A DNA stretch of 62,607 nucleotides from a candidate division WOR-3 bacterium (lineage in GTDB: Bacteria; Hydrothermota; Tepidihabitantia; Tepidihabitantales; Tepidihabitantaceae), in the NCBI GenBank assembly GCA_039801245.1, contig JBDRUF010000003.1, positions 1-62,607 on the forward strand, in the 5' to 3' direction. Shown here piece by piece: positions 2,946 through 62,607 of this stretch. Made by a program: the position numbers and the translations under genes. A model generated the notes under the pieces. The model was given only the letters and a program-made list of their open reading frames with translations. It made no database searches and was not told the origin of the DNA. Each line of letters opens with the position of its first letter. Position 1 is the first letter of the stretch.

Positions 2946-5900
2946 ACACTTTTGGCTTTGGTGAGGCGGGCGTGAACCAATTCGGCAACTGCCCAGTAGA
3001 CCTCTTTCCGCTCCTCTTCGGTTAATCCGAGGGCATCAAAGACAACCTCATCAAGTGCTTTGCGGTCTGGTAATGGCTTTGGCTCCTGCTCCCTGATGGG
3101 CTTATTAGGGTCAAAACCGAGTTCGGTGAAGATGGGGTGGATTTCTTTAAAAATGAAGTTAGCAAAAATTTTTTTATTAAATTTAATATTTTCTATTGGA
3201 GGTATTGGCATTTCGTTATAATGACATACTTTCATTTGTATTGGTCCGCCTCCACCACCTTCGGGTGGACGACATAGAAGTTCTTTCCATAATCCTATAA
3301 GGCTGCTATTTAAAAACATATTCAACGATTCATCTTCTATATCGCACTTTTTATATACCCAATATAAGGCAGCATCTATGAAAGCATTTGCTTGATTATA
3401 AAAACAATATTTTCTTTCTCTTTCAAACATTGGCAGGATATTTTTGCTAATTTCCCATTCACCTAACTCCCACCATCTTGGTCTTCCTTTACAAGTGGGT
3501 CTTTTGTCAAATCCTTCCCTTTCTCCCCATTTTATATATTCCCAAGCCTTTGCTCCTTTTAATTCCTTTTCCGATTTATGGCACATAAAGACAAGGTAGT
3601 TTAAGTCTTCAAGTTTTACAATTATTGTCTTTAATTCCCTCGGGCTTTTTATCACCGGCTTTAAAAACTCTGCCTCAATTTCACCTTCCCAGCCCGCACC
3701 ATTTTGGACAGGAATCAGGCGAGAAGGCTCCTTCTCTGAAATCTCAGCAACCTGTTTAACGGTCATACCAACAGGTTTTAGATAGAAGAACTCATTGGCA
3801 CCGGTTTTAATACCAAACCTCACCTCAGCAATATCTCCCAATCTTACCAGTTTCCCTTTCCCTTTTTCAAGAATCTTGAAATAAATATCTGGCGCCCTTA
3901 GGTATTTTCCGCCCCATTTGTCGCCGATGTAGCGGGCAGATTTGATTAATGGGGCAGAAGAGCCGCGTTTGGTTTCGTCAGGTTCAGGTAGTTCAATGCC
4001 GTTTTCCCAAAGGGTGCGCTGGCGGATGGGGGTGACCCGATATTCTTTGGTAATGGCTCTTTCTTTTGCTTCCTCAATCTCCTCAAATATGACCGGGGAG
4101 AGGACCTGCTCAAATGGCACCTTGAACATCACGAACCGGGCGATTTTGTCCAGTCCGGCATCGCGGCGCTCTTCAGGGGCGGCGAGGAGGACGATGACGG
4201 TGTTGACATCTGCCCGGGCAAAGGTGCGTTTGGTCTCGTTGTCAATAATCATCTTGACATTGCTCTGTCTGAGGAGAAACTCCTGGAGGTCTTTGCCGTA
4301 GCCGACATCAAGCCAGGAGTTGGAGGTGATGAAGCAGAATGAGCCCTTTGGGTTCAGGAGGGACAGACCGTGGAAGTAGAAGTAGATGTAGAGGTCGCTT
4401 TTGGCATCGGGCTGCCGTCCCTTGAAGAAGTCGGGCCAGGCAGAAATGACCGAGAGGCGCAGTTTCTCCTTATGCATCTTTTTCAGTTCGCGCCAGTCGT
4501 CTTTGGAATACTCATCCTCGGGCAGCAGCGGCGGGGCAATCATCTCCTGACGGACATAGGGCGGGTTGCCGATGACGATGTCAAACCCTTCCTTTTCGCC
4601 CTCAAACACCTCCACAAAGGCGATGTCCCAGACAAACGGGATGTCCTTAACCGTCCTGATGGTATTGAGTGCCTGTTCAACCCGCTCAAGTTCTGCCTCC
4701 TTTTTTTCTTTTTCCGCCTGCCATTGGGCAATAAGGAGGTTTAACTCCTTTGGCTTGCCGGTATCGGCAAGGGTTAATTGGTCGTATAGTGACTCAATCT
4801 TACAGGTAAGGGTTTTGATTTCCTCGGAGAGGGCGTGGCGTTTGTGGAAAAGCGCATCCTGAAACAGTTGTTTTTCCTCCTCTTTGAGAAGTTCCTCGCT
4901 CAAGCCTTTTGTCTCCCCATAGAAATAGCGTAGTTTCTTGCCCTTCAACTGGGTGATTTTGCCTTTAAGATAAGGGGGCAGGTCCAGATGGGTGCGGTGG
5001 AGGTTGAAGTTGATGCCGCCTATCTCCTGGAGCAGGCTGTCACCTTGGCGCAATTTGAAGTTGAGATTGGGCAAAAGTGGGACCAGGGCTCTTTCAGCAG
5101 GTTTGAGTTCGGTCTCAACAACCAGTTGCAGCCAGAGGCGCAGTTCGGCAATATGGACCGCCCATTCCATTACATCAACGCCGTAGAGGCTTGAGCCGAT
5201 GATTTTGCGCCGGCGCTGGTAAGGGGTTTCCTCTATACCCAACTGGTAATTGGCACGGGCAATCAGGTCGTCTAAGACAAGAAGCATTCCTACCAGAAAT
5301 GAGCCGGAGCCGCAGGCAGGGTCGCACACGGTAACCGAGCGCAAAAGGTCGTTGAGTTTGTGCCAGAGGTTGAGGCGGGCGATTTCGTTGTCGGCTGACT
5401 CCTTGTCCGGCTGGTCATAGGCAAAGACTGCCCGATATAGGAGCGGTTTGTGGTTTTCGCCCAGATGATTGGCGAGCCAGTCAACAAGAGCCAGTCGGCA
5501 CATCAGGTCTATCTCCACCCTCGGGGTGTAAAAGATACCGGCTTTGCCGCGCTGGTCCTCCTTGGTAATGCCCTCAGAGGTGATGTTCACCAGTTGCTCA
5601 TAGACAATGCCAATCATCTCCGGGTCAACCGCAACCTCAACATCAAGGGGCGATGACTCGGTGATGGTGAAGTTGTGTCGCTCCAGGAAGCCGGGTTGAG
5701 TGCCTTGAAAGGAGTCAAAGAGAAGGGCAAAGAAACTGTCCGGGACAATTGGGTCGTATTTTTCGTCAAGTTTGTTGCGGGAGAAGAGACCGCCGTTGAG
5801 ATAGGGCGCGGTTGCCAGGGCGGTGCGAATTTCTTCAGGCAGGTGTTTGCGGTCCTGTCTGCCCGCCTGGAAACTCTGATTGAAGGCTTCAAAGAAGAGG

Positions 5901-6736
5901 ATGGAGAGCCAGTCAGAGAAGAAGGTGTCTTTGGGCTGGTTGGAGTTCTGGTAGGCTTGCCAGAAGGTGCGGATAAAGTTCGGGTTATTACCAAGCCACC
6001 GTTTCTTCTGGATGAAGTAAAGGAACATCAGCCGGTTCAGTAACTGGAGTGCGTAGTCGTGCGCCCAAACCTTGTCCTCCGTTTGTTCCATTAGGAGTTT
6101 TTGCAGGGTCTCAAACACATCTTGATAGCCGTCAAAGAACTCCTCGGTTACCGCCTCAACGCTGAAGGCATCCTCAATCCGCTGGAGTGTCGGGTCGGTT
6201 GCGTCATCCTCAAGGATGGGCAAAAGTCGGGACTGGGCGGTGTGACTGCCTTCATCTTTGCCAACCAGATAGGAGAAGCGCTTGGTGGGTGTGAGCTCGG
6301 GTTTAGCAGCAACCCTGCCGCTGGGTGTTGTGTCCAAGCGGTAGGCAAGTTTGACAAGGGAGAAACGCCAGGTGTCGGACTCGGGTGGGACAAATGCTAC
6401 CAGCGCCGCATCGGCAGGGTAGCCACCAATCCGCTGGTTGAGGTAGTAACCGATGAGGTTGCGCTGCATTGCGCGGGCGTGATAAAGTGAGGTTTCTTTT
6501 TGAAGTTGGACAACGAGCACATCAAGGCGGCTGTTAAACGGCTCCTGATAGAAACCGATGCGTTCAAGCGTTTTGACATAGGGCTGAAATGAGGCGGGAA
6601 GTTGGCTGGGGGGGATGGTCAGGGTTGACTCCTCCAGCCGATTAAGGAGATTTTTGATGAATTCCCGGAAAAGGGCAGGGTTAAACGGGTTTTCAAAAGT
6701 CTCGCTTATAAGGCGGACCGCCTGGTCGTGGGTCAT
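2942..6736 (-). CDS. Large gamma-class N6-adenine DNA methyltransferase, Eco57I / PglX-like (no BREX partner genes present)
   Basis: 1264 aa. SAM motif I is VCDPACGSGSFLV and catalytic motif IV is FDIVIGNPPYVRQE. There is a coiled-coil insert between the motifs and a large C-terminal region typical of type IIG/PglX-like enzymes. Confidence 0.85.
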   Translation of the reverse strand: MTHDQAVRLISETFENPFNPALFREFIKNLLNRLEESTLTIPPSQLPASFQPYVKTLERIGFYQEPFNSRLDVLVVQLQKETSLYHARAMQRNLIGYYLNQRIGGYPADAALVAFVPPESDTWRFSLVKLAYRLDTTPSGRVAAKPELTPTKRFSYLVGKDEGSHTAQSRLLPILEDDATDPTLQRIEDAFSVEAVTEEFFDGYQDVFETLQKLLMEQTEDKVWAHDYALQLLNRLMFLYFIQKKRWLGNNPNFIRTFWQAYQNSNQPKDTFFSDWLSILFFEAFNQSFQAGRQDRKHLPEEIRTALATAPYLNGGLFSRNKLDEKYDPIVPDSFFALLFDSFQGTQPGFLERHNFTITESSPLDVEVAVDPEMIGIVYEQLVNITSEGITKEDQRGKAGIFYTPRVEIDLMCRLALVDWLANHLGENHKPLLYRAVFAYDQPDKESADNEIARLNLWHKLNDLLRSVTVCDPACGSGSFLVGMLLVLDDLIARANYQLGIEETPYQRRRKIIGSSLYGVDVMEWAVHIAELRLWLQLVVETELKPAERALVPLLPNLNFKLRQGDSLLQEIGGINFNLHRTHLDLPPYLKGKITQLKGKKLRYFYGETKGLSEELLKEEEKQLFQDALFHKRHALSEEIKTLTCKIESLYDQLTLADTGKPKELNLLIAQWQAEKEKKEAELERVEQALNTIRTVKDIPFVWDIAFVEVFEGEKEGFDIVIGNPPYVRQEMIAPPLLPEDEYSKDDWRELKKMHKEKLRLSVISAWPDFFKGRQPDAKSDLYIYFYFHGLSLLNPKGSFCFITSNSWLDVGYGKDLQEFLLRQSNVKMIIDNETKRTFARADVNTVIVLLAAPEERRDAGLDKIARFVMFKVPFEQVLSPVIFEEIEEAKERAITKEYRVTPIRQRTLWENGIELPEPDETKRGSSAPLIKSARYIGDKWGGKYLRAPDIYFKILEKGKGKLVRLGDIAEVRFGIKTGANEFFYLKPVGMTVKQVAEISEKEPSRLIPVQNGAGWEGEIEAEFLKPVIKSPRELKTIIVKLEDLNYLVFMCHKSEKELKGAKAWEYIKWGEREGFDKRPTCKGRPRWWELGEWEISKNILPMFERERKYCFYNQANAFIDAALYWVYKKCDIEDESLNMFLNSSLIGLWKELLCRPPEGGGGGPIQMKVCHYNEMPIPPIENIKFNKKIFANFIFKEIHPIFTELGFDPNKPIREQEPKPLPDRKALDEVVFDALGLTEEERKEVYWAVAELVHARLTKAKSV

Positions 6737-57065: not shown

Positions 57066-57686
57066 CTAAAGTCCTAATAACTTATTAAGCGGATTAACAA
57101 TTAACTCTTCAATGGTTTTGTTCAGCGCCTGTTCCAGTCCGATGTTTTCTTCTTTTGCTCTCTCTTCAAGTTTCTGCCGGCTGAACGCATAGAGCGGAAC
57201 GACAAAGCCTTTGAAATCACCACCTGTTAAATCGCCGGTGTCTGTATACCGACCAGAAAAGGTGGTATTATCATTTACAACAAAATTATCAATAAAGCGT
57301 TTATTATTTATTACTACATAGTAAGCATAATGATGTTTTGCTGGTCTCGGGGTGCGGAGATGGCTCGCAATCACTATCACAGCAGGTTCTGTTATTATAT
57401 TCTTTAGGGTATCGTTGTAGAACTCTGTAGCCCTATCTGGACACAATATACACACTAAACCTACTATCCACTCTGGTTTTTCTTTAAGTTTAAAAGCACA
57501 ATAATATGGGTCGGGGAGTAAGGGCGGACCTACAGACTTGCTCTGGTAGTAAAGATCCGATACTTTCACCTTATAACGGTTACTTATTACAGTTAATAAG
57601 CCGTGGATGTCCTTGAACAATTGGTCGAACCATCTATAGGTTTTATAAAAATTGTTTACTTTGTGCTCATCCATTCCGCTAATCAT
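57066..57686 (-). CDS. Hypothetical 206-aa protein, translationally coupled partner of the nuclease-like gene
   Basis: ATG 57686 overlaps the upstream stop by 8 nt (ATGATTAG). AAGGCGG lies 5 nt upstream. Low GC. No motif recognised. Confidence 0.6.
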   Translation of the reverse strand: MISGMDEHKVNNFYKTYRWFDQLFKDIHGLLTVISNRYKVKVSDLYYQSKSVGPPLLPDPYYCAFKLKEKPEWIVGLVCILCPDRATEFYNDTLKNIITEPAVIVIASHLRTPRPAKHHYAYYVVINNKRFIDNFVVNDNTTFSGRYTDTGDLTGGDFKGFVVPLYAFSRQKLEERAKEENIGLEQALNKTIEELIVNPLNKLLGL

Positions 57687-58431
57687 TTTTGCCGCCTTTA
57701 TCTATTCCCAACCTGAAATCAGGCGGGTTTGGTATGTTTTTGAAATCAATCCCGGCAAATGCGGGCACATAAATCTGCCAGTCTGGGCATTCAGTTATTT
57801 GTTCAAAATCAAACCCCTTGAAAATACGGTAACCGTAAAAGCCAAGAAAGTCCCGGAAATTTTCAAGGACATACCGCTCCTGCTCATTAGTGTTGTATAT
57901 CCGTTCCTTGGGAAAATCGCTGACGAACTTTTCTATTACCCAGAGAACCTCACCCCAGGTTAAATCCAGCCTTTTTTCCTTTAGCTCGTTATCATTAAAC
58001 CCGAAGTAATTCTTCGCGTGTTTAATTATCTGTTCTTCAATCACCGGATTCCCGCCCCTTTTGCACTCAATCAGAAAGCAATAATCTTGCTCTTTATATA
58101 TCCAGGCATCGGGCGAAGAACCGCCTTCAGCGTTTATATCTTTTGTTTCCTTTTTCTCTTCTTCTGGTGGATTGGTTGCGATAGTAACAAGATATTTGTT
58201 GCGGCAGTTTTTAGGGATATTTGTTTCAATATTGCCCTGGAGAGCGAATCCGGCATTTGGATAGTCATATTCAGGGAGTTTGCCAAAAAGCTCCTTGAGG
58301 AAATTTTGGCGGTTTTCCCCTGAAAGTATACGCAGGGTCTGGATAAAGGCACGGGTGAGGTTGTTTTCTTTAAGTTCGGCATCTTCGCTCAGGTTGTAGG
58401 AGTAGAAAAGATTGAGATGCCGGTCCTGCAT
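57679..58431 (-). CDS. PD-(D/E)xK nuclease-fold protein (restriction-endonuclease-like), unknown family
   Basis: ELKENNLTRAFIQTL helix, then SSPDAWIY ... DYCFLIECKRG (a PD...ExK arrangement). ATG 58431 (MQDRHL) is preferred; the track start TTG 58452 sits inside a TATAAT box. Confidence 0.6.
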   Translation of the reverse strand: MQDRHLNLFYSYNLSEDAELKENNLTRAFIQTLRILSGENRQNFLKELFGKLPEYDYPNAGFALQGNIETNIPKNCRNKYLVTIATNPPEEEKKETKDINAEGGSSPDAWIYKEQDYCFLIECKRGGNPVIEEQIIKHAKNYFGFNDNELKEKRLDLTWGEVLWVIEKFVSDFPKERIYNTNEQERYVLENFRDFLGFYGYRIFKGFDFEQITECPDWQIYVPAFAGIDFKNIPNPPDFRLGIDKGGKND

Positions 58432-58602
58432 TGACACAATATTATAATACAAATTTTAAAAGTCAAGGAGAGCAAAAAGCACCGGTTAATACTTGACAAT
58501 TGGCTTGCTATAGATATTATACTTCTGAGTTCAGGAGTTATGTGATGTTTTTCTGCCACTTTTTATTTCAGCAGTTGGGTCCGGGTTTGGAAAGGAGTTA
58601 AG

Positions 58603-59976
58603 ATGAGAAAGGGCGTCCTGGTTTTTGCCCTTGTTTTCCTATTTGCCTTGTGCGGGCGTAATAAGCCGCCAAGTGTGCCAGAGTTGAGTGGTCCGGTAAG
58701 CGGGCGCCCAGGTGAAAGGCTTGTATTTAATGTTGTCGCAACCGACCCGGAGGGAAAGGAGGTTTCTTATAAGATTTCCTGGGGTGACACATCCAGTGTT
58801 GACTGGTCTTCTTTTTATCTCAGCGGGCAGCCGGTTAGGCGCGAGCATATCTATACCGATACCGGTGTTTATGTTATCCGTGCAATGGCAAGGGACCCGG
58901 AGTTGAAGGAGTCGGGCTGGAGCGAGGACTGGAATGTAATTATAAAGTTTCTACCACCAAATGCGCCGCAGAAACCTGAAGGTCCATCGGTCTGCACCAC
59001 CGGTGTCAGTTATGAGTTTCGGTTCCGGGCATCTCATCCGCAGAATGACAGCCTCTGGTTTCAGGTTGACTGGGGCGGGGTGGTTGATGACTGGCGCGGG
59101 CCGGTGCCGAGCGACTCCTATCTACGGGTGAATCATTGCTTTGATACTGCTGGTTGCTATGGGATTGCGGTCAGGGCGCGGGACAGCCGGTTGCAGATGA
59201 CATCCTGGTCAGACACCTTGCTCGTTACAGTTTTCGCAATCCCGGGCGGACCACCAACCGGATTCAGGCTGGAAGCGGCAACTGATACAACGGTGCGGCT
59301 TTTGTGGGAACCGCCCTTAGAGGGGGAGCCAAACTTTTACCGGTTGATGTTCAAACAGGTGGGTGGCACAGGGTTTTCTGTCATTGCCGAAACCCTTGGC
59401 TATGTTTTTGAGCACAACCCTCATGGCTTGACCGGCACCTACAAGATTGCCGCGGTTTTCGGTGCTACCGCTTACGAGGATACTGTTTTGCTTTCGACTG
59501 TGCCGATTCAGACCGGCAGTGTGACTGTTAATGAACTTTCCACTGGTGCTGCCTGCGGTTGCGGCTGGAACCGGGATATGGGCATTGCCTATGCCTATCC
59601 GATGCTCGATACTATTTACTGCAGCAGTGTTGACTGGTACTGCACCGATTTTGCGGTTGGTTCCAATGGGCCGATATATTATGCGGCAAGCCCTGATACC
59701 GCTGTCTTTGATACCGGAGGGGCTGTGCCACCTGGTCCCTGGCACAACACACCCTTGGCATTGCTTTCCGACGAGCAGGGTCCGGTGCCGCCGGCTGGAG
59801 ATAGTGTTTATCAGAAGGCGGTGAGGCTGAATGCTGCTGGTGTCTGTTTCGGGCTCTGCACCGTTGATGGCTATTACTGCATTGTTAAGGTTACGCAGTT
59901 GCGCATCAATCAACAGGAGATCCGGGTCCGGGCATGGTTTCAACCAGTGCGAGGGTTACGGCTATTAAGGCATTAG
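58603..59976 (+). CDS. Hypothetical lipoprotein with PKD-like repeats and an Fn3-like domain
   Basis: Lipobox LFALCG. Repeated units are KISWGDTSSVDWS and FQVDWGGVVDDWRG. Fn3-like PPTGFRLEAATDTTVRLLWEPP. Confidence 0.6.
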   Translation: MRKGVLVFALVFLFALCGRNKPPSVPELSGPVSGRPGERLVFNVVATDPEGKEVSYKISWGDTSSVDWSSFYLSGQPVRREHIYTDTGVYVIRAMARDPELKESGWSEDWNVIIKFLPPNAPQKPEGPSVCTTGVSYEFRFRASHPQNDSLWFQVDWGGVVDDWRGPVPSDSYLRVNHCFDTAGCYGIAVRARDSRLQMTSWSDTLLVTVFAIPGGPPTGFRLEAATDTTVRLLWEPPLEGEPNFYRLMFKQVGGTGFSVIAETLGYVFEHNPHGLTGTYKIAAVFGATAYEDTVLLSTVPIQTGSVTVNELSTGAACGCGWNRDMGIAYAYPMLDTIYCSSVDWYCTDFAVGSNGPIYYAASPDTAVFDTGGAVPPGPWHNTPLALLSDEQGPVPPAGDSVYQKAVRLNAAGVCFGLCTVDGYYCIVKVTQLRINQQEIRVRAWFQPVRGLRLLRH

Positions 59977-60123
59977 GAAATAGATTGCCCTTATAATAAA
60001 ACCTACATTCCTCTTTTTTCTTAATAGAACGATTGCTCTTAATTAATTAAGATAAGAAAAGAAACGTTAAAGACCTATAAACTCAATACCTCTACTCCCC
60101 ATGACCTCCCCGTTTTAGTTGAG

Positions 60124-60157
60124 AAGGTTGCCAGCCCGGGTTCGGGCTGGCAACCTT
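60124..60157 (-). terminator. Perfect 15-bp hairpin ending the mini-ORF unit (no clear U-tract)
   Basis: AAGGTTGCCAGCCCG-ggtt-CGGGCTGGCAACCTT. Confidence 0.45.
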
Positions 60158-60175
60158 AAACCTATCCTTTCAAAA

Positions 60176-60235
60176 TTATGCTGTTGGGGGTGCAGGAATA
60201 GGTGGTGGATAGATTGGTGCAAACGGTCCGTCCAT
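60176..60235 (-). CDS. 19-codon proline-rich mini-ORF MDGPFAPIYPPPIPAPPTA
   Basis: Hand translation. AGGAGG (60246-60241) lies 5 nt before ATG 60235 and the stop is TAA at 60178-60176. It is downstream of a consensus sigma-54 promoter. Confidence 0.5.
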   Translation of the reverse strand: MDGPFAPIYPPPIPAPPTA

Positions 60236-60306
60236 TTTTACCTCCTTTTGTGTTTGATTTATGCCTAATATTTAAAATCTGCATTTTCATTGCTTAACAA
60301 ACATAA

Positions 60307-60321
60307 GCAATTTTTGTGCCA
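60307..60321 (-). promoter_or_regulatory. Sigma-54 (-24/-12) promoter
   Basis: On the minus strand, TGGCACaaaaaTTGC is an exact match to TGGCAC-N5-TTGC. It is adjacent to a sigma-54 enhancer-binding protein gene. Confidence 0.7.
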
Positions 60322-60699
60322 CATTATACTAAAATCATAAGTACATTTTTTTCATATAGTTATATATAAGAGACCTTTCTGAACGACACAGAAATAATGT
60401 TAAAATTTGTCGCTATTAGTGCGACTATTTTGTAAGTACAATTTAAATTGAGAGTTATATCATATGCGACAATTATGTGCTTTATTTTTGAGATTAGGGA
60501 TAATAGGTGTTGTTTTTTATTTGTATTTGAAAAATAATAACTTAATTCAATTTTACATCTCCTAATGAAGTAACAAAATATGTGGATTTGTCGCATGTTG
60601 GTGTGACATAGTAATAGATTGTTAGTTAGGAAAGTTTTTTGTTTGAGGATGGTGGTGGGGTTAGCAGAGATGGTGGGCTCCATAATGTTATGGAGGGGT

Positions 60700-62607
60700 T
60701 TACTCGGCTTCTGGGAGGTGGAAAGTGGATGGGTCGAGATTTAGCCGTTTTATAACCCTTTGTAGAGTGCGCCTGTGGGTAGAAAGGAGTTTAGCGGCAT
60801 GGGAGATATTACCGTTTGTCTTCTTTAACGCATCTATTACCTCCTCTTTGCGCAGGACGCGCCTCTTTTTCCTTTCGAATTTCGTCACATCTTTGCTGGG
60901 AGGTTTATTAAACGGGGGTCCAAAATCTTTAAGGGTAAGGATTCTGTTTGGGGTTAAAATCACCGCTCTTTCTATTGCATTCTGGAGTTCCCTGACATTT
61001 CCTGGCCAATTGTATCTTATAAAGGCAGAAATGACCTCATCCTCGAAACCAAAGACCGGCTTTTTGAACTTTACGGCATAACGGCGCAAGAAGTAATCGG
61101 CAAGAATAGGGATATCCTCAGTCCTTTCGCGGAGAGGCGGGACATGAATGGTAACCACATTTATCCGGTAAAAGAGGTCTTCTCTAAATCTGCCCGCTTT
61201 GACCTCTTCCATCAGGTCTTTGTTTGTGGCGCAAATCAGTCGGACATCAACTGTTCTTTGTTCAGTGTCACCAACCCTTCTGATTATTTTCTCCTCTAAT
61301 ACCTGCAAAAGTTTCGCCTGAATCAGCGGCGTGGTGTTGGTGATGTCGTCGAGAAAGACGGTCCCACCGTTGGCGGTCTCAAATATACCAACCTTGTCTT
61401 TAATAGCGCCGGTGAAACTTCCTTGGATGTAACCGAAGAGTTCTGACTCAAAGAGTGTTTCCGGGAGGGTGCTGCAGTTGACCGAAATAAATTTGTTGTT
61501 TCTCCGGTTACTTCGCTGATGAATGAGCTGTGCCAACACCCCTTTACCGGTCCCGGTTTCTCCAGTCAAAAGGACTGTGGAATCGGTAGGGGCGATGCGG
61601 TCAATTGCCTGATAGACATTGCCCATTACCTTTGACCTGCCCAGAACCACCTTTTCGTTGTCAATTAAAATCTCTTCACCCGGTAATCCTTCTTCCTCTT
61701 GAATCATCTGGAACGCCAGTGAGCGCTCAATGGTTGTGGCAAGGAGATTGGCAACCGCGATGAGTAAGTTACGGTCGTCTTCAGTCCAGAGGTGGGAGGT
61801 AATGCGGCTGTCAAGGTAAATAGTACCTAAAACCCGGTCTTCAACTATTAGCGGGACACACAGGAGAGAGCGAATCTTATTTAAGACGACGCTGTTGTAA
61901 CTGTTAAATCTGGGGTCGGTGAGCGCATTGGCGCTGATGAGCGGTTCACTCCGTTCCTTCACCTCCCGTAGAATAGAATAGGAAATTGCCTCGGCATCGG
62001 CCATCGTTGCCCGCTCGGTGCCACGGATAGCGACCGGGAAAAGCTGGTCGCGGTTGAGAAGGAAAATAAGCCCCCTTTCCGCCTTGGTAACTGCCAGAAG
62101 GCGGTCAAGGACCTGTTCCAGAAAGTCCTCTTTTTCAATAGCGGAGTAAATTAGTTCACTAATTTGGTAGAGGACTTTAAGGTACTCACTGCGCGCACCC
62201 GCCTTGAGCTGAGCCACCCCAAATACCCTTTTGACCTCGTTGAGGAGTTGATGGGCTCGGGCAATCTCTAATTTCGCATCAAGCTCCTGAAAGATGGTTA
62301 ATCCTTCATTTAGATTTCTCTCCACCTCTTGGAACTCATCAGGTTCGATCCTAAATTCCTCGCTTTTCCCATACTCATAGTCCCGAGCGATTCTGAGGAG
62401 CGCCTCGGCTGACGCTAAAAGGGATAGACCCAACTCATACTTTAGTCCGAGTTTGCGAAAGAGGCGGATACTCTGTTTTATCTCTTCCTTTCCCACTTCT
62501 GCGTAACCGAGATGGCATTTTGCCAAACCGGATAACCGCAAGGCAATTGGAAAACCTTTATCAGTGGGGTAACTCTTGAAGAGTTTCAGGGCACGGGTGG
62601 CGTCATA
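60700..62607 (-). CDS. Sigma-54-dependent transcriptional activator: TPR-like N-terminus, GAF sensor, AAA+ domain, Fis-type HTH; the 5' end lies beyond the window
   Basis: GETGTGKG Walker A, ESELFGYIQGSFTGA (the GAFTGA-loop region), VRELQNAIERAV, and the C-terminal GNISHAAKLLSTHRRTLQRVIKRL. The frame stays open upstream of the track start to position 62607. Confidence 0.85.
   Translation of the reverse strand, partial: YDATRALKLFKSYPTDKGFPIALRLSGLAKCHLGYAEVGKEEIKQSIRLFRKLGLKYELGLSLLASAEALLRIARDYEYGKSEEFRIEPDEFQEVERNLNEGLTIFQELDAKLEIARAHQLLNEVKRVFGVAQLKAGARSEYLKVLYQISELIYSAIEKEDFLEQVLDRLLAVTKAERGLIFLLNRDQLFPVAIRGTERATMADAEAISYSILREVKERSEPLISANALTDPRFNSYNSVVLNKIRSLLCVPLIVEDRVLGTIYLDSRITSHLWTEDDRNLLIAVANLLATTIERSLAFQMIQEEEGLPGEEILIDNEKVVLGRSKVMGNVYQAIDRIAPTDSTVLLTGETGTGKGVLAQLIHQRSNRRNNKFISVNCSTLPETLFESELFGYIQGSFTGAIKDKVGIFETANGGTVFLDDITNTTPLIQAKLLQVLEEKIIRRVGDTEQRTVDVRLICATNKDLMEEVKAGRFREDLFYRINVVTIHVPPLRERTEDIPILADYFLRRYAVKFKKPVFGFEDEVISAFIRYNWPGNVRELQNAIERAVILTPNRILTLKDFGPPFNKPPSKDVTKFERKKRRVLRKEEVIDALKKTNGNISHAAKLLSTHRRTLQRVIKRLNLDPSTFHLPEAE

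Follow-up and report, generated by a model that had tools for sequence, protein, structure and literature searches.

What product is made from the short transcription unit that lies beside the gene of a sigma-54 activator in a candidate division WOR-3 bacterium, and what is that product to the activator? The unit is found in a stretch of 62,607 nt (GenBank assembly GCA_039801245.1, contig JBDRUF010000003.1, positions 1 to 62,607; hereafter the window), and its elements are read on the minus strand. An initial annotation, made from the sequence alone, described a promoter, a Shine-Dalgarno (SD) sequence, a 19-codon proline-rich open reading frame (ORF) and a hairpin that together formed a stand-alone unit, and it offered three functions for the unit: a small protein, a dual-function small RNA (sRNA), or a sensor of EF-P and the state of translation. 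Here we find that the ORF is a real and conserved gene for a tiny proline-rich peptide, located downstream of a giant regulator gene in WOR-3. As the best explanation overall, and at roughly even confidence, we propose that regulator and peptide form a two-gene regulatory cassette of this candidate phylum.

The promoter, SD, start codon, mini-ORF, stop codon and hairpin were all recovered at the positions that the initial annotation had given them. The sigma-54 -24/-12 promoter, TGGCAC-N5-TTGC (N5 = aaaaa), occupies 60307 to 60321, and transcription is predicted to start at 60294 to 60298, some 11-12 nt past the GC of the -12 element, as the usual geometry of sigma-54 promoters would have it. 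The SD sequence AGGAGG (60241 to 60246) lies 5 nt ahead of the ATG at 60235, from which 19 codons and a stop (60176 to 60235, with TAA at 60178-60176) specify the peptide MDGPFAPIYPPPIPAPPTA. A terminator-type hairpin, evident from both sequence and fold, follows at 60124 to 60157 with a perfect 15-bp stem, a 4-nt AACC loop and no U-tract after it; the stem sequence has no second occurrence within the window. Upstream, the 3' third of the regulator gene fills 60700 to 62607, and the spacer between the two genes is as AT-rich as had been claimed, with a G+C content of 0.255-0.33 (25-33%) vs about 0.45-0.57 (45-57%) in the flanking genes. The next gene downstream, which encodes a PKD-domain protein (58603-59976, from Pfam and the ORF list), is convergent to the mini-gene, again as the initial annotation had it.

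The same architecture recurs in relatives. About 45 related loci, mostly from WOR-3 metagenomes, carry the unit of promoter, SD, proline-rich ORF and hairpin; the first three orthologues examined all had a -24/-12 element, a GGAGG, a proline-rich ORF and a hairpin downstream of the regulator, and a scan of a genome collection returned two true orthologues, both with the cassette, and no cassette at about 78 loci with more distant enhancer-binding proteins (EBPs). A metagenome scan with an alignment of the GAF region produced 43 orthologous loci, 41 of them with usable downstream DNA, and a proline-rich ORF of the family lies downstream of the regulator in 39 of the 41. In the reverse test, which started from long-form peptides of the family, each contig with upstream DNA (3/3) put the peptide directly after the giant regulator. 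Carriers of the cassette include the metagenome-assembled genomes GCA_037441285.1, GCA_039801345.1 and GCA_039801525.1 and the 735-kb contig Ga0209101_1000001. The search for matching architecture that the initial annotation had recommended is answered by its recurrence beside an orthologous regulator in about 40 loci, and this recurrence supports the claim that the unit is a stand-alone one and the putative dedicated target of the neighbouring activator. The -24 element usually lies 150-170 nt past the stop codon of the regulator (378 nt in the window), the distance from promoter to ATG is 32-61 nt in most loci, GGAGG stands ahead of every orthologous ORF, and the peptide gene is found about 200-650 nt downstream of the regulator. 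In most loci a strong hairpin, rich in GC, follows 3-60 nt past the stop codon, many of these with a T-run, and the core CAGCCCG...CGGGCTG is common to the closest group. An all-against-all BLAST comparison revealed no conserved neighbours beyond the regulator, save a radical SAM and C25 gene pair in one subgroup.

The peptides share a conserved unit, D/N-G followed by 0-3 residues and then hydrophobic-P-hydrophobic-x-P-x-P-x-P-x-P-P, which the window peptide carries as DG-x(0-3)-hydrophobic-P-hydrophobic-x-P-x-P-x-P-x-P-P. The unit occurs in three forms. In the first it stands alone and leaderless in peptides of 16-25 residues, as in the window peptide, its nearest relative at locus L085 (MDGPFVPVLPPPIPAPPMA) and L102 (MDGIPIPPRPGPLGPP). 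The second form consists of two tandem single-unit genes and was seen at L093, where NDSYPILPQPGPIAPPLGI and NDSYPILPQPGPIAPPLY, both of which start at TTG and have a GGAGG of their own, lie at 5690-5850, about 215-375 nt past the regulator stop; these tandem mini-genes may be an intermediate between the single-unit and tandem-repeat forms. In the third, a Sec-type signal peptide is followed by 2-6 tandem units (4 copies of QDGGIPIPPSPGPLPPCPPKVFAQ at L091 and 5 copies of DGIVIPPRPKPGPS at L118), and the linkers repeat the hydrophobic-Ala|Asp/Gln junction, a signal-peptidase-like site, seen at the end of the signal peptide. The signal peptides and tandem units of these long forms suggest export in some lineages, in which the unit is probably exported and cut out.

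Only the longer secreted forms are represented in protein databases. A long-form query of a protein database returned seven proteins only, all unannotated, and a hidden Markov model search of 1.84 billion representative proteins returned nine members, all of 41-98 residues and all labelled 'hypothetical'. Pfam and NCBIfam, searched with the long-form peptides, held no model for the family, and a Hap4 match to a long-form peptide was rejected as a low-complexity artefact. Searches of the literature on WOR-3 and sigma-54, on proline-rich small proteins with EBPs, on EBPs with kinase or TPR domains and on quorum sensing in WOR-3 turned up no described family for the cassette. The statement of the initial annotation that no described family matched the unit holds across Pfam, NCBIfam, Rfam and this literature.

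The two exceptions among the 41 loci were L116, which is without the ORF, and L113, which has a fragment only. At L116 (Ga0335071_10000065, about 5944-6300), TGGCAC-N5-GTGC lies about 266 nt downstream of an orthologous regulator (56% identity in GAF) and is followed by an 8-codon ORF, MPCIDLLR, and by no proline-rich ORF; this regulator may be a paralogue with another target. At L113 (4306-4450), the C-terminal fragment of a repeat-type peptide (...GGIIIPPRPRPGPSWVS) comes right after the regulator stop, without a promoter region; either the cassette has decayed or the repeats collapsed in the assembly. Two further pairs of loci bear on how the two genes have diverged. Between L089 and L125 the difference is 0.4% in the 3' end of the regulator, 11.7% in the ORF and 10% in the 3' region, the ORF changes being L to R at one 'x' position and M to A at another; between L102 and L103 it is 14.7% in the regulator and 27% in the spacer, whereas none of the 51 nt of the ORF differ. 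Peptide cassette and regulator have decoupled histories by these figures, which suggest that alleles were exchanged or that selection acted episodically on the variable positions.

Is the product of the mini-gene the peptide or the RNA? Pairwise differences among 11 distinct ORFs of the window's subtype numbered 107, 88 and 324 at codon positions 1, 2 and 3, and the codon differences comprised 259 synonymous vs 101 non-synonymous ones; indels among the ORFs are in frame, with L086 and L087 differing by one in-frame codon. RNAalifold found no conserved RNA structure over the ORF in 11 close loci, and pairing between the ORF and the 3' region ranged from 1 to 15 pairs between loci. Because the substitutions preserve the peptide and no RNA structure is conserved, we take the product to be the peptide, and by this pattern purifying selection acts on the ORF at the level of its peptide. 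The check that the initial annotation had proposed, of substitutions that preserve the peptide against substitutions that preserve RNA pairing, comes out on the side of the peptide. The pairing of CCT-ATT-CCT with GGATAGG that it had pointed out is indeed present in the minimum free energy fold of the window, as AAUCUAUCC:GGAUAGGUU, and is not conserved in relatives.

These data bear directly on the proposal that the unit is a regulatory RNA or a translation-state sensor, whether a sigma-54-dependent sRNA or an EF-P/prolyl-tRNA sensor that uses the ORF as a stalling device. The window transcript does fold better than shuffles (z = -4.4), but its low folding energy derives from the terminator and the local helix just described, and the preponderance of synonymous substitutions is not what an RNA would call for. 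The window ORF contains PPP, but PPP is missing in most peptide types and the non-proline residues (D, G, I/V) are conserved, and the terminator and the unrelated or convergent neighbours leave nothing to attenuate. Sigma-54-dependent sRNAs beside their own activator are well known, but an Rfam search of 59900-60750 at permissive thresholds gave chance-level matches only, far below gathering scores. An RNA or sensor function is highly improbable in our judgement. Of the three functions that had been offered, the small protein is supported, whereas the dual-function sRNA and the EF-P sensor are not; against these two are the absence of PPP from most family members, the absence of a downstream gene under control and the secreted tandem-repeat precursors of sister lineages. 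At L086, L089, L092, L001 and L112, the predicted fold pairs the GGAGG SD with CUUCC or UCUCC of Leu-Pro codons in the ORF, which could be a means of masking the SD in those relatives and is not seen in the window.

Is the promoter real, and what would act on it? The sequence TGGCAC-N5-TTGC has one exact match in the 62.6 kb of the window vs 0.13 expected, at least one match occurred in 12 of 100 shuffles, and with one mismatch allowed there are 11 matches vs 5.5 expected. By itself, the lone exact match is only suggestive. Chance origin is untenable because of the comparative data from the orthologous loci, in which an equivalent -24/-12 element is present. The GG and GC dinucleotides of the window promoter stand 10 nt apart, the spacing that defines sigma-54 promoters. 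The other sigma-54-like sites in the window, five of them scoring 9/10, were discarded because all lie within long ORFs and none has a GCGAC site.

Of all 6-mers in the 260 nt that precede the promoters, GCGACA/TGTCGC is the most widespread; it is present in 26 of 28 distinct sequences and reaches a density there of 6.6 per kb, vs 1.06 per kb in the remainder of the loci. Counted from the first base of the -24 element, the position of GCGAC is -89 to -96 in 26 of the 28 distinct promoters, the window's included, and a GTCGC is often found at about -158. In the window, positional conservation marks as the candidate upstream activator sequence an inverted repeat, GTCGC-N7-GCGACA (60408 to 60425), whose right half GCGACA (60408 to 60413) starts at -92, within the range of about 80-150 bp upstream at which such sites are found, and is a putative binding site. 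A TGTCGCA half-site at about -150 (60465 to 60471, GTCGC at -149) has its counterpart in the GTCGC at about -158/-160 of many orthologous loci, and a distal GCGACA copy, read from the sequence, lies about -273 from the -24 element (60589 to 60594). A composite signature, GCGAC at -97 to -83 combined with a promoter that scores 8 of 10 or better, had 32 matches in 0.88 Mb of orthologous loci, 30 of which stand directly before the peptide ORF, and 1 match in 1.16 Mb of control loci; no second target was seen within the DNA scanned.

The GCGACA site of the window is flanked by a 28-nt direct repeat, ATAACT-N15-ACTTAY, with a spacing of 95 nt between the copies. The upstream copy, ATAACT-N15-ACTTAC (60433 to 60460), has its parts at -137 and -116, and the promoter-proximal copy, ATAACT-N15-ACTTAT (60338 to 60365), at -42 and -21; they match positionally conserved short motifs in relatives, namely TAACT at about -137, ACTTAC at about -116, TAACT at about -42 and ACTTAT at about -21. 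The repeat could be the site for a bending protein or for a second contact of the regulator.

What kind of protein is this regulator? The part within the window contains the domains GAF, Sigma54_activat (PF00158, 5e-67), AAA_lid_14 and HTH_8 (PF02954) after the end of a TPR region, and with its GSFTGA loop, the counterpart of GAFTGA, it has the features that define an EBP. The initial annotation had placed a GAF/AAA+/HTH activator at 60700-62607; the domains stand, but the gene is not complete at 62541 or 62607. The ORF list gives a complete ORF of 613 aa from a TTG at 62541, but the frame is in fact stop-free up to the window edge, and full-length orthologues have 1,730-1,880 residues (about 1,750), by which measure the true window regulator extends about 1,150 residues further past the edge. 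The orthologues have the domain order Pkinase, AAA_16/nSTAND, TPR_12/TPR_MalT, GAF, Sigma54_activat and HTH_8, such that their extra N-terminal region of about 1,200 aa comprises the kinase, STAND and TPR domains; in this region, which for the window protein lies beyond the window, Walker A/B motifs are followed by TPR_MalT, as in STAND NTPases with TPR repeats. Conservation was counted over 29-37 aligned regulator sequences per motif: the kinase Lys, HxD, DFG and APE motifs and the Walker A/B motifs of both the STAND and the EBP modules are conserved, and the G[A/S]FTGA loop is intact in 37 of 37 sequences. By these motifs, the regulator is equipped with all that marks an active sigma-54 activator, a STAND ATPase and a kinase. 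No transmembrane segment was predicted in the regulator sequences. The closest relatives are labelled candidate division WOR-3, and the Joint Genome Institute name on relatives is 'Nif-specific regulatory protein'; the best NCBIfam match of the C-terminal part is TIGR01817 nifA, at 376 bits and below its cut-off of 529. For the TPR region, the best sequence matches in the PDB are Pins/LGN and bacterial KLC-like TPRs.

How might the two genes work together? Homology shows that the gene ending at 60700 encodes the last third, on the C-terminal side, of a regulator that is soluble and has about 1,750 residues. The HTH of this regulator would bind the GCGACA sites upstream, of which the one at -92 is best conserved in position, and its AAA+ ring would remodel the sigma-54 holoenzyme at TGGCAC-N5-TTGC. 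A monocistronic mRNA of about 175 nt would run from near 60296 to the 15-bp hairpin, and its functional product, as the substitution pattern shows, is the 19-residue peptide and not the RNA. We hold these steps of regulator, activation, transcript and product, taken jointly, with high confidence. In a further step, the peptide may be sensed by the regulator's own TPR or GAF region, which would close an autoinducing loop with RRNPP-like logic and leave the kinase domain as a second output.

Our favoured reading, made by analogy and given somewhat less than even weight, is that the TPR or GAF sensor has the peptide as its ligand, for signalling or for feedback. This reading is preferred because a leaderless peptide of 16 residues without adjacent immunity, export and maturation genes is typical of signalling peptides, because the unit alternates between leaderless and Sec/tandem forms as in RRNPP systems, because its linkage to a receptor-like protein with a repeat scaffold of the peptide-binding type is one-to-one, and because the nearest solved relatives of the TPR region by sequence are the TPR domains of Pins/LGN. 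The TPR domains of Pins/LGN bind extended peptides, and direct activation of the peptide gene by its receptor is known for several RRNPP systems. The pairing is new to the literature and may be a peptide-signalling cassette. A broader version, namely cell-cell peptide signalling outside Bacillota in which the regulator of about 1,750 residues would be the intracellular receptor for its own proline-rich peptide and would have sigma-54 transcription and phosphorylation as outputs, we regard as doubtful, if worth stating.

Several observations weigh against the signalling reading or the cassette as a whole. The leaderless forms have no visible export signal, and the neighbour comparison yielded no consistently adjacent gene for an exporter, an importer or a protease. 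In a Mantel-type test, peptide distance correlated with the distances of every regulator domain (r = 0.47-0.61 whichever the domain, and partial correlations were small), and co-variation with TPR or GAF was no stronger than with other domains, so that nothing in it singled out binding of the peptide to the sensor. By sequence, the TPR region is like generic TPR_12 proteins, Pins/LGN among them, and not like the RRNPP receptors. The window hairpin lacks a U-tract, and the RpoN box is absent from a six-frame translation of the window, which does not include rpoN. The G[A/S]FTGA loop, intact in all 37 aligned regulators, is indirect evidence in favour of an rpoN in the genome.

Alternatively, the peptide could be pure output without feedback, an exported proline-rich effector of, for example, antimicrobial, anti-adhesive or surface-active kind, with the regulator sensing something else through GAF or TPR. 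The Sec signal peptides and tandem units of the long forms and the lack of a co-evolution signal with the sensor domains agree with this, and the E-type units (GIVIPPRPKPGPS) loosely recall the PRP motifs of proline-rich antimicrobial peptides, but most units are neutral or acidic and not cationic. A leaderless effector of 16 residues would still need an exporter, immunity, export or maturation genes are not consistently linked, and it would be left unexplained why a receptor-like regulator of very large size is linked to the peptide strictly one to one. We consider a pure output unlikely.

Could the peptide instead stay within the cell? The window form and most other forms are without a signal peptide, and the regulator is cytoplasmic and has a TPR scaffold. 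These points favour a small-protein partner that would bind the regulator or the substrates of its kinase, in intracellular feedback like that of MgrB on PhoQ. Sister lineages, however, export the unit in tandem copies by way of Sec, which is difficult to square with such a partner unless the peptide is re-imported, and we think this reading quite improbable.

The one recurrent set of neighbours raises the question of whether the peptide is the precursor of a ribosomally synthesised and post-translationally modified peptide (RiPP), with a radical SAM enzyme encoded nearby to modify it and a C25 peptidase to cut it. In 11 loci of the closest peptide type, a radical SAM gene and a Peptidase_C25 gene do follow immediately downstream, but they are convergent and not co-transcribed with the peptide gene, and they are missing from the window and from its nearest relative L085. 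The radical SAM protein is generic, without SPASM and below the cut-off of every NCBIfam model that it matched, peptide-maturase models included; peptides of 16-19 residues are too short for leader plus core; and other loci have different neighbours (GlnA, SmpB, UvrB). A RiPP precursor is very unlikely on these grounds. At L001 (6325-9992), the radical SAM protein of the pair carries a C-terminal TrmB-like winged HTH and the Peptidase_C25 protein has about 970 aa; both genes are convergent to that of the peptide, and the pair has counterparts in the same position at L005, L086-L090, L092, L108, L112 and L125.

Beyond the convergent PKD-domain gene of the window, two overlapping ORFs of 206 and 257 aa on the minus strand (57066-58452) have a G+C content of 38-42% between regions of about 52-57%. 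They had no match in Pfam, NCBIfam or PADLOC and may have been acquired recently.

Genes for peptides as small as this escape standard annotation, and the mini-gene described here is conserved as the partner of a regulator that ranks with the largest one-component regulators known in an uncultured phylum. Should the regulator read the peptide as a signal, receptor-propeptide signalling would reach beyond Gram-positive bacteria and would be tied to sigma-54 transcription and Ser/Thr phosphorylation; that an uncultured phylum has in this cassette a peptide-signalling system of a new class seems to us possible and on balance unlikely. On a conservative reading, the locus provides a clean promoter, upstream site and target set for sigma-54 control in WOR-3, along with a defined peptide of 16-19 residues that can be synthesised and tested directly.

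To which known systems does the cassette compare? MgtL and MgtP of Salmonella are leader peptides with proline codons, and polyproline stalling depends on EF-P. The WOR-3 unit is like them in being a very short ORF with consecutive proline codons, and it differs in having no downstream gene in its transcription unit, in the conservation of residues beyond the prolines and in its secreted multi-unit versions. A leader peptide or attenuator was rejected given the hairpin terminator after the ORF and a next gene that is convergent in the window and varies between loci. A trans-acting sRNA such as CrcZ, Qrr or GlmY was likewise rejected, there being no Rfam family, no conserved structure and substitutions of the coding type.

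CbrB-crcZ, LuxO-qrr1, GlrR-glmY and PspF-pspA are sigma-54 activators with an adjacent dedicated small target, and the WOR-3 cassette resembles them in its EBP gene with its own -24/-12 promoter, upstream sites, very short transcript and terminator. Their products are sRNAs or the sizeable PspA, whereas that of WOR-3 is a peptide of 16-25 residues, and the WOR-3 activator, unlike theirs, is fused to a kinase and STAND module. The C-terminal third of the regulator has the domain order of NifA-type EBPs (GAF-AAA+-HTH), but the protein falls below the TIGR01817 cut-off and has the additional N-terminal region of about 1,200 aa, and no nif genes were seen among the neighbours examined. With the STAND NTPases that have TPR sensors (MalT, AfsR, PknK), it shares AAA_16/nSTAND1 and TPR_MalT, and an N-terminal Ser/Thr kinase as in PknK, but its output is a sigma-54 AAA+ activator and not a LuxR or SARP HTH.

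The RRNPP cassettes of Bacillota (Rap-Phr, PlcR-PapR, NprR-NprX, Rgg-SHP, RopB-LCP and AimR-AimP) differ from the WOR-3 cassette in several respects. The WOR-3 regulator is a kinase-STAND-TPR-GAF-sigma-54 activator of about 1,750 aa and not an HTH-TPR or Rap protein, the phylum is another, the peptide is proline-rich, and the TPR repeats are closest to the Pins/LGN type; homology of the receptor to Rap, Rgg, NprR, PlcR, PrgX or AimR was not found, Pfam giving generic TPR and MalT-type repeats only. The likeness lies in the arrangement, a predicted cytoplasmic TPR-type receptor adjoining a tiny propeptide gene, and in the forms of the peptide, since RRNPP systems include propeptides with a Sec signal peptide and sometimes tandemly duplicated units (PMC11343458) as well as very short leaderless peptides (PMC10518010), as does the family described here.

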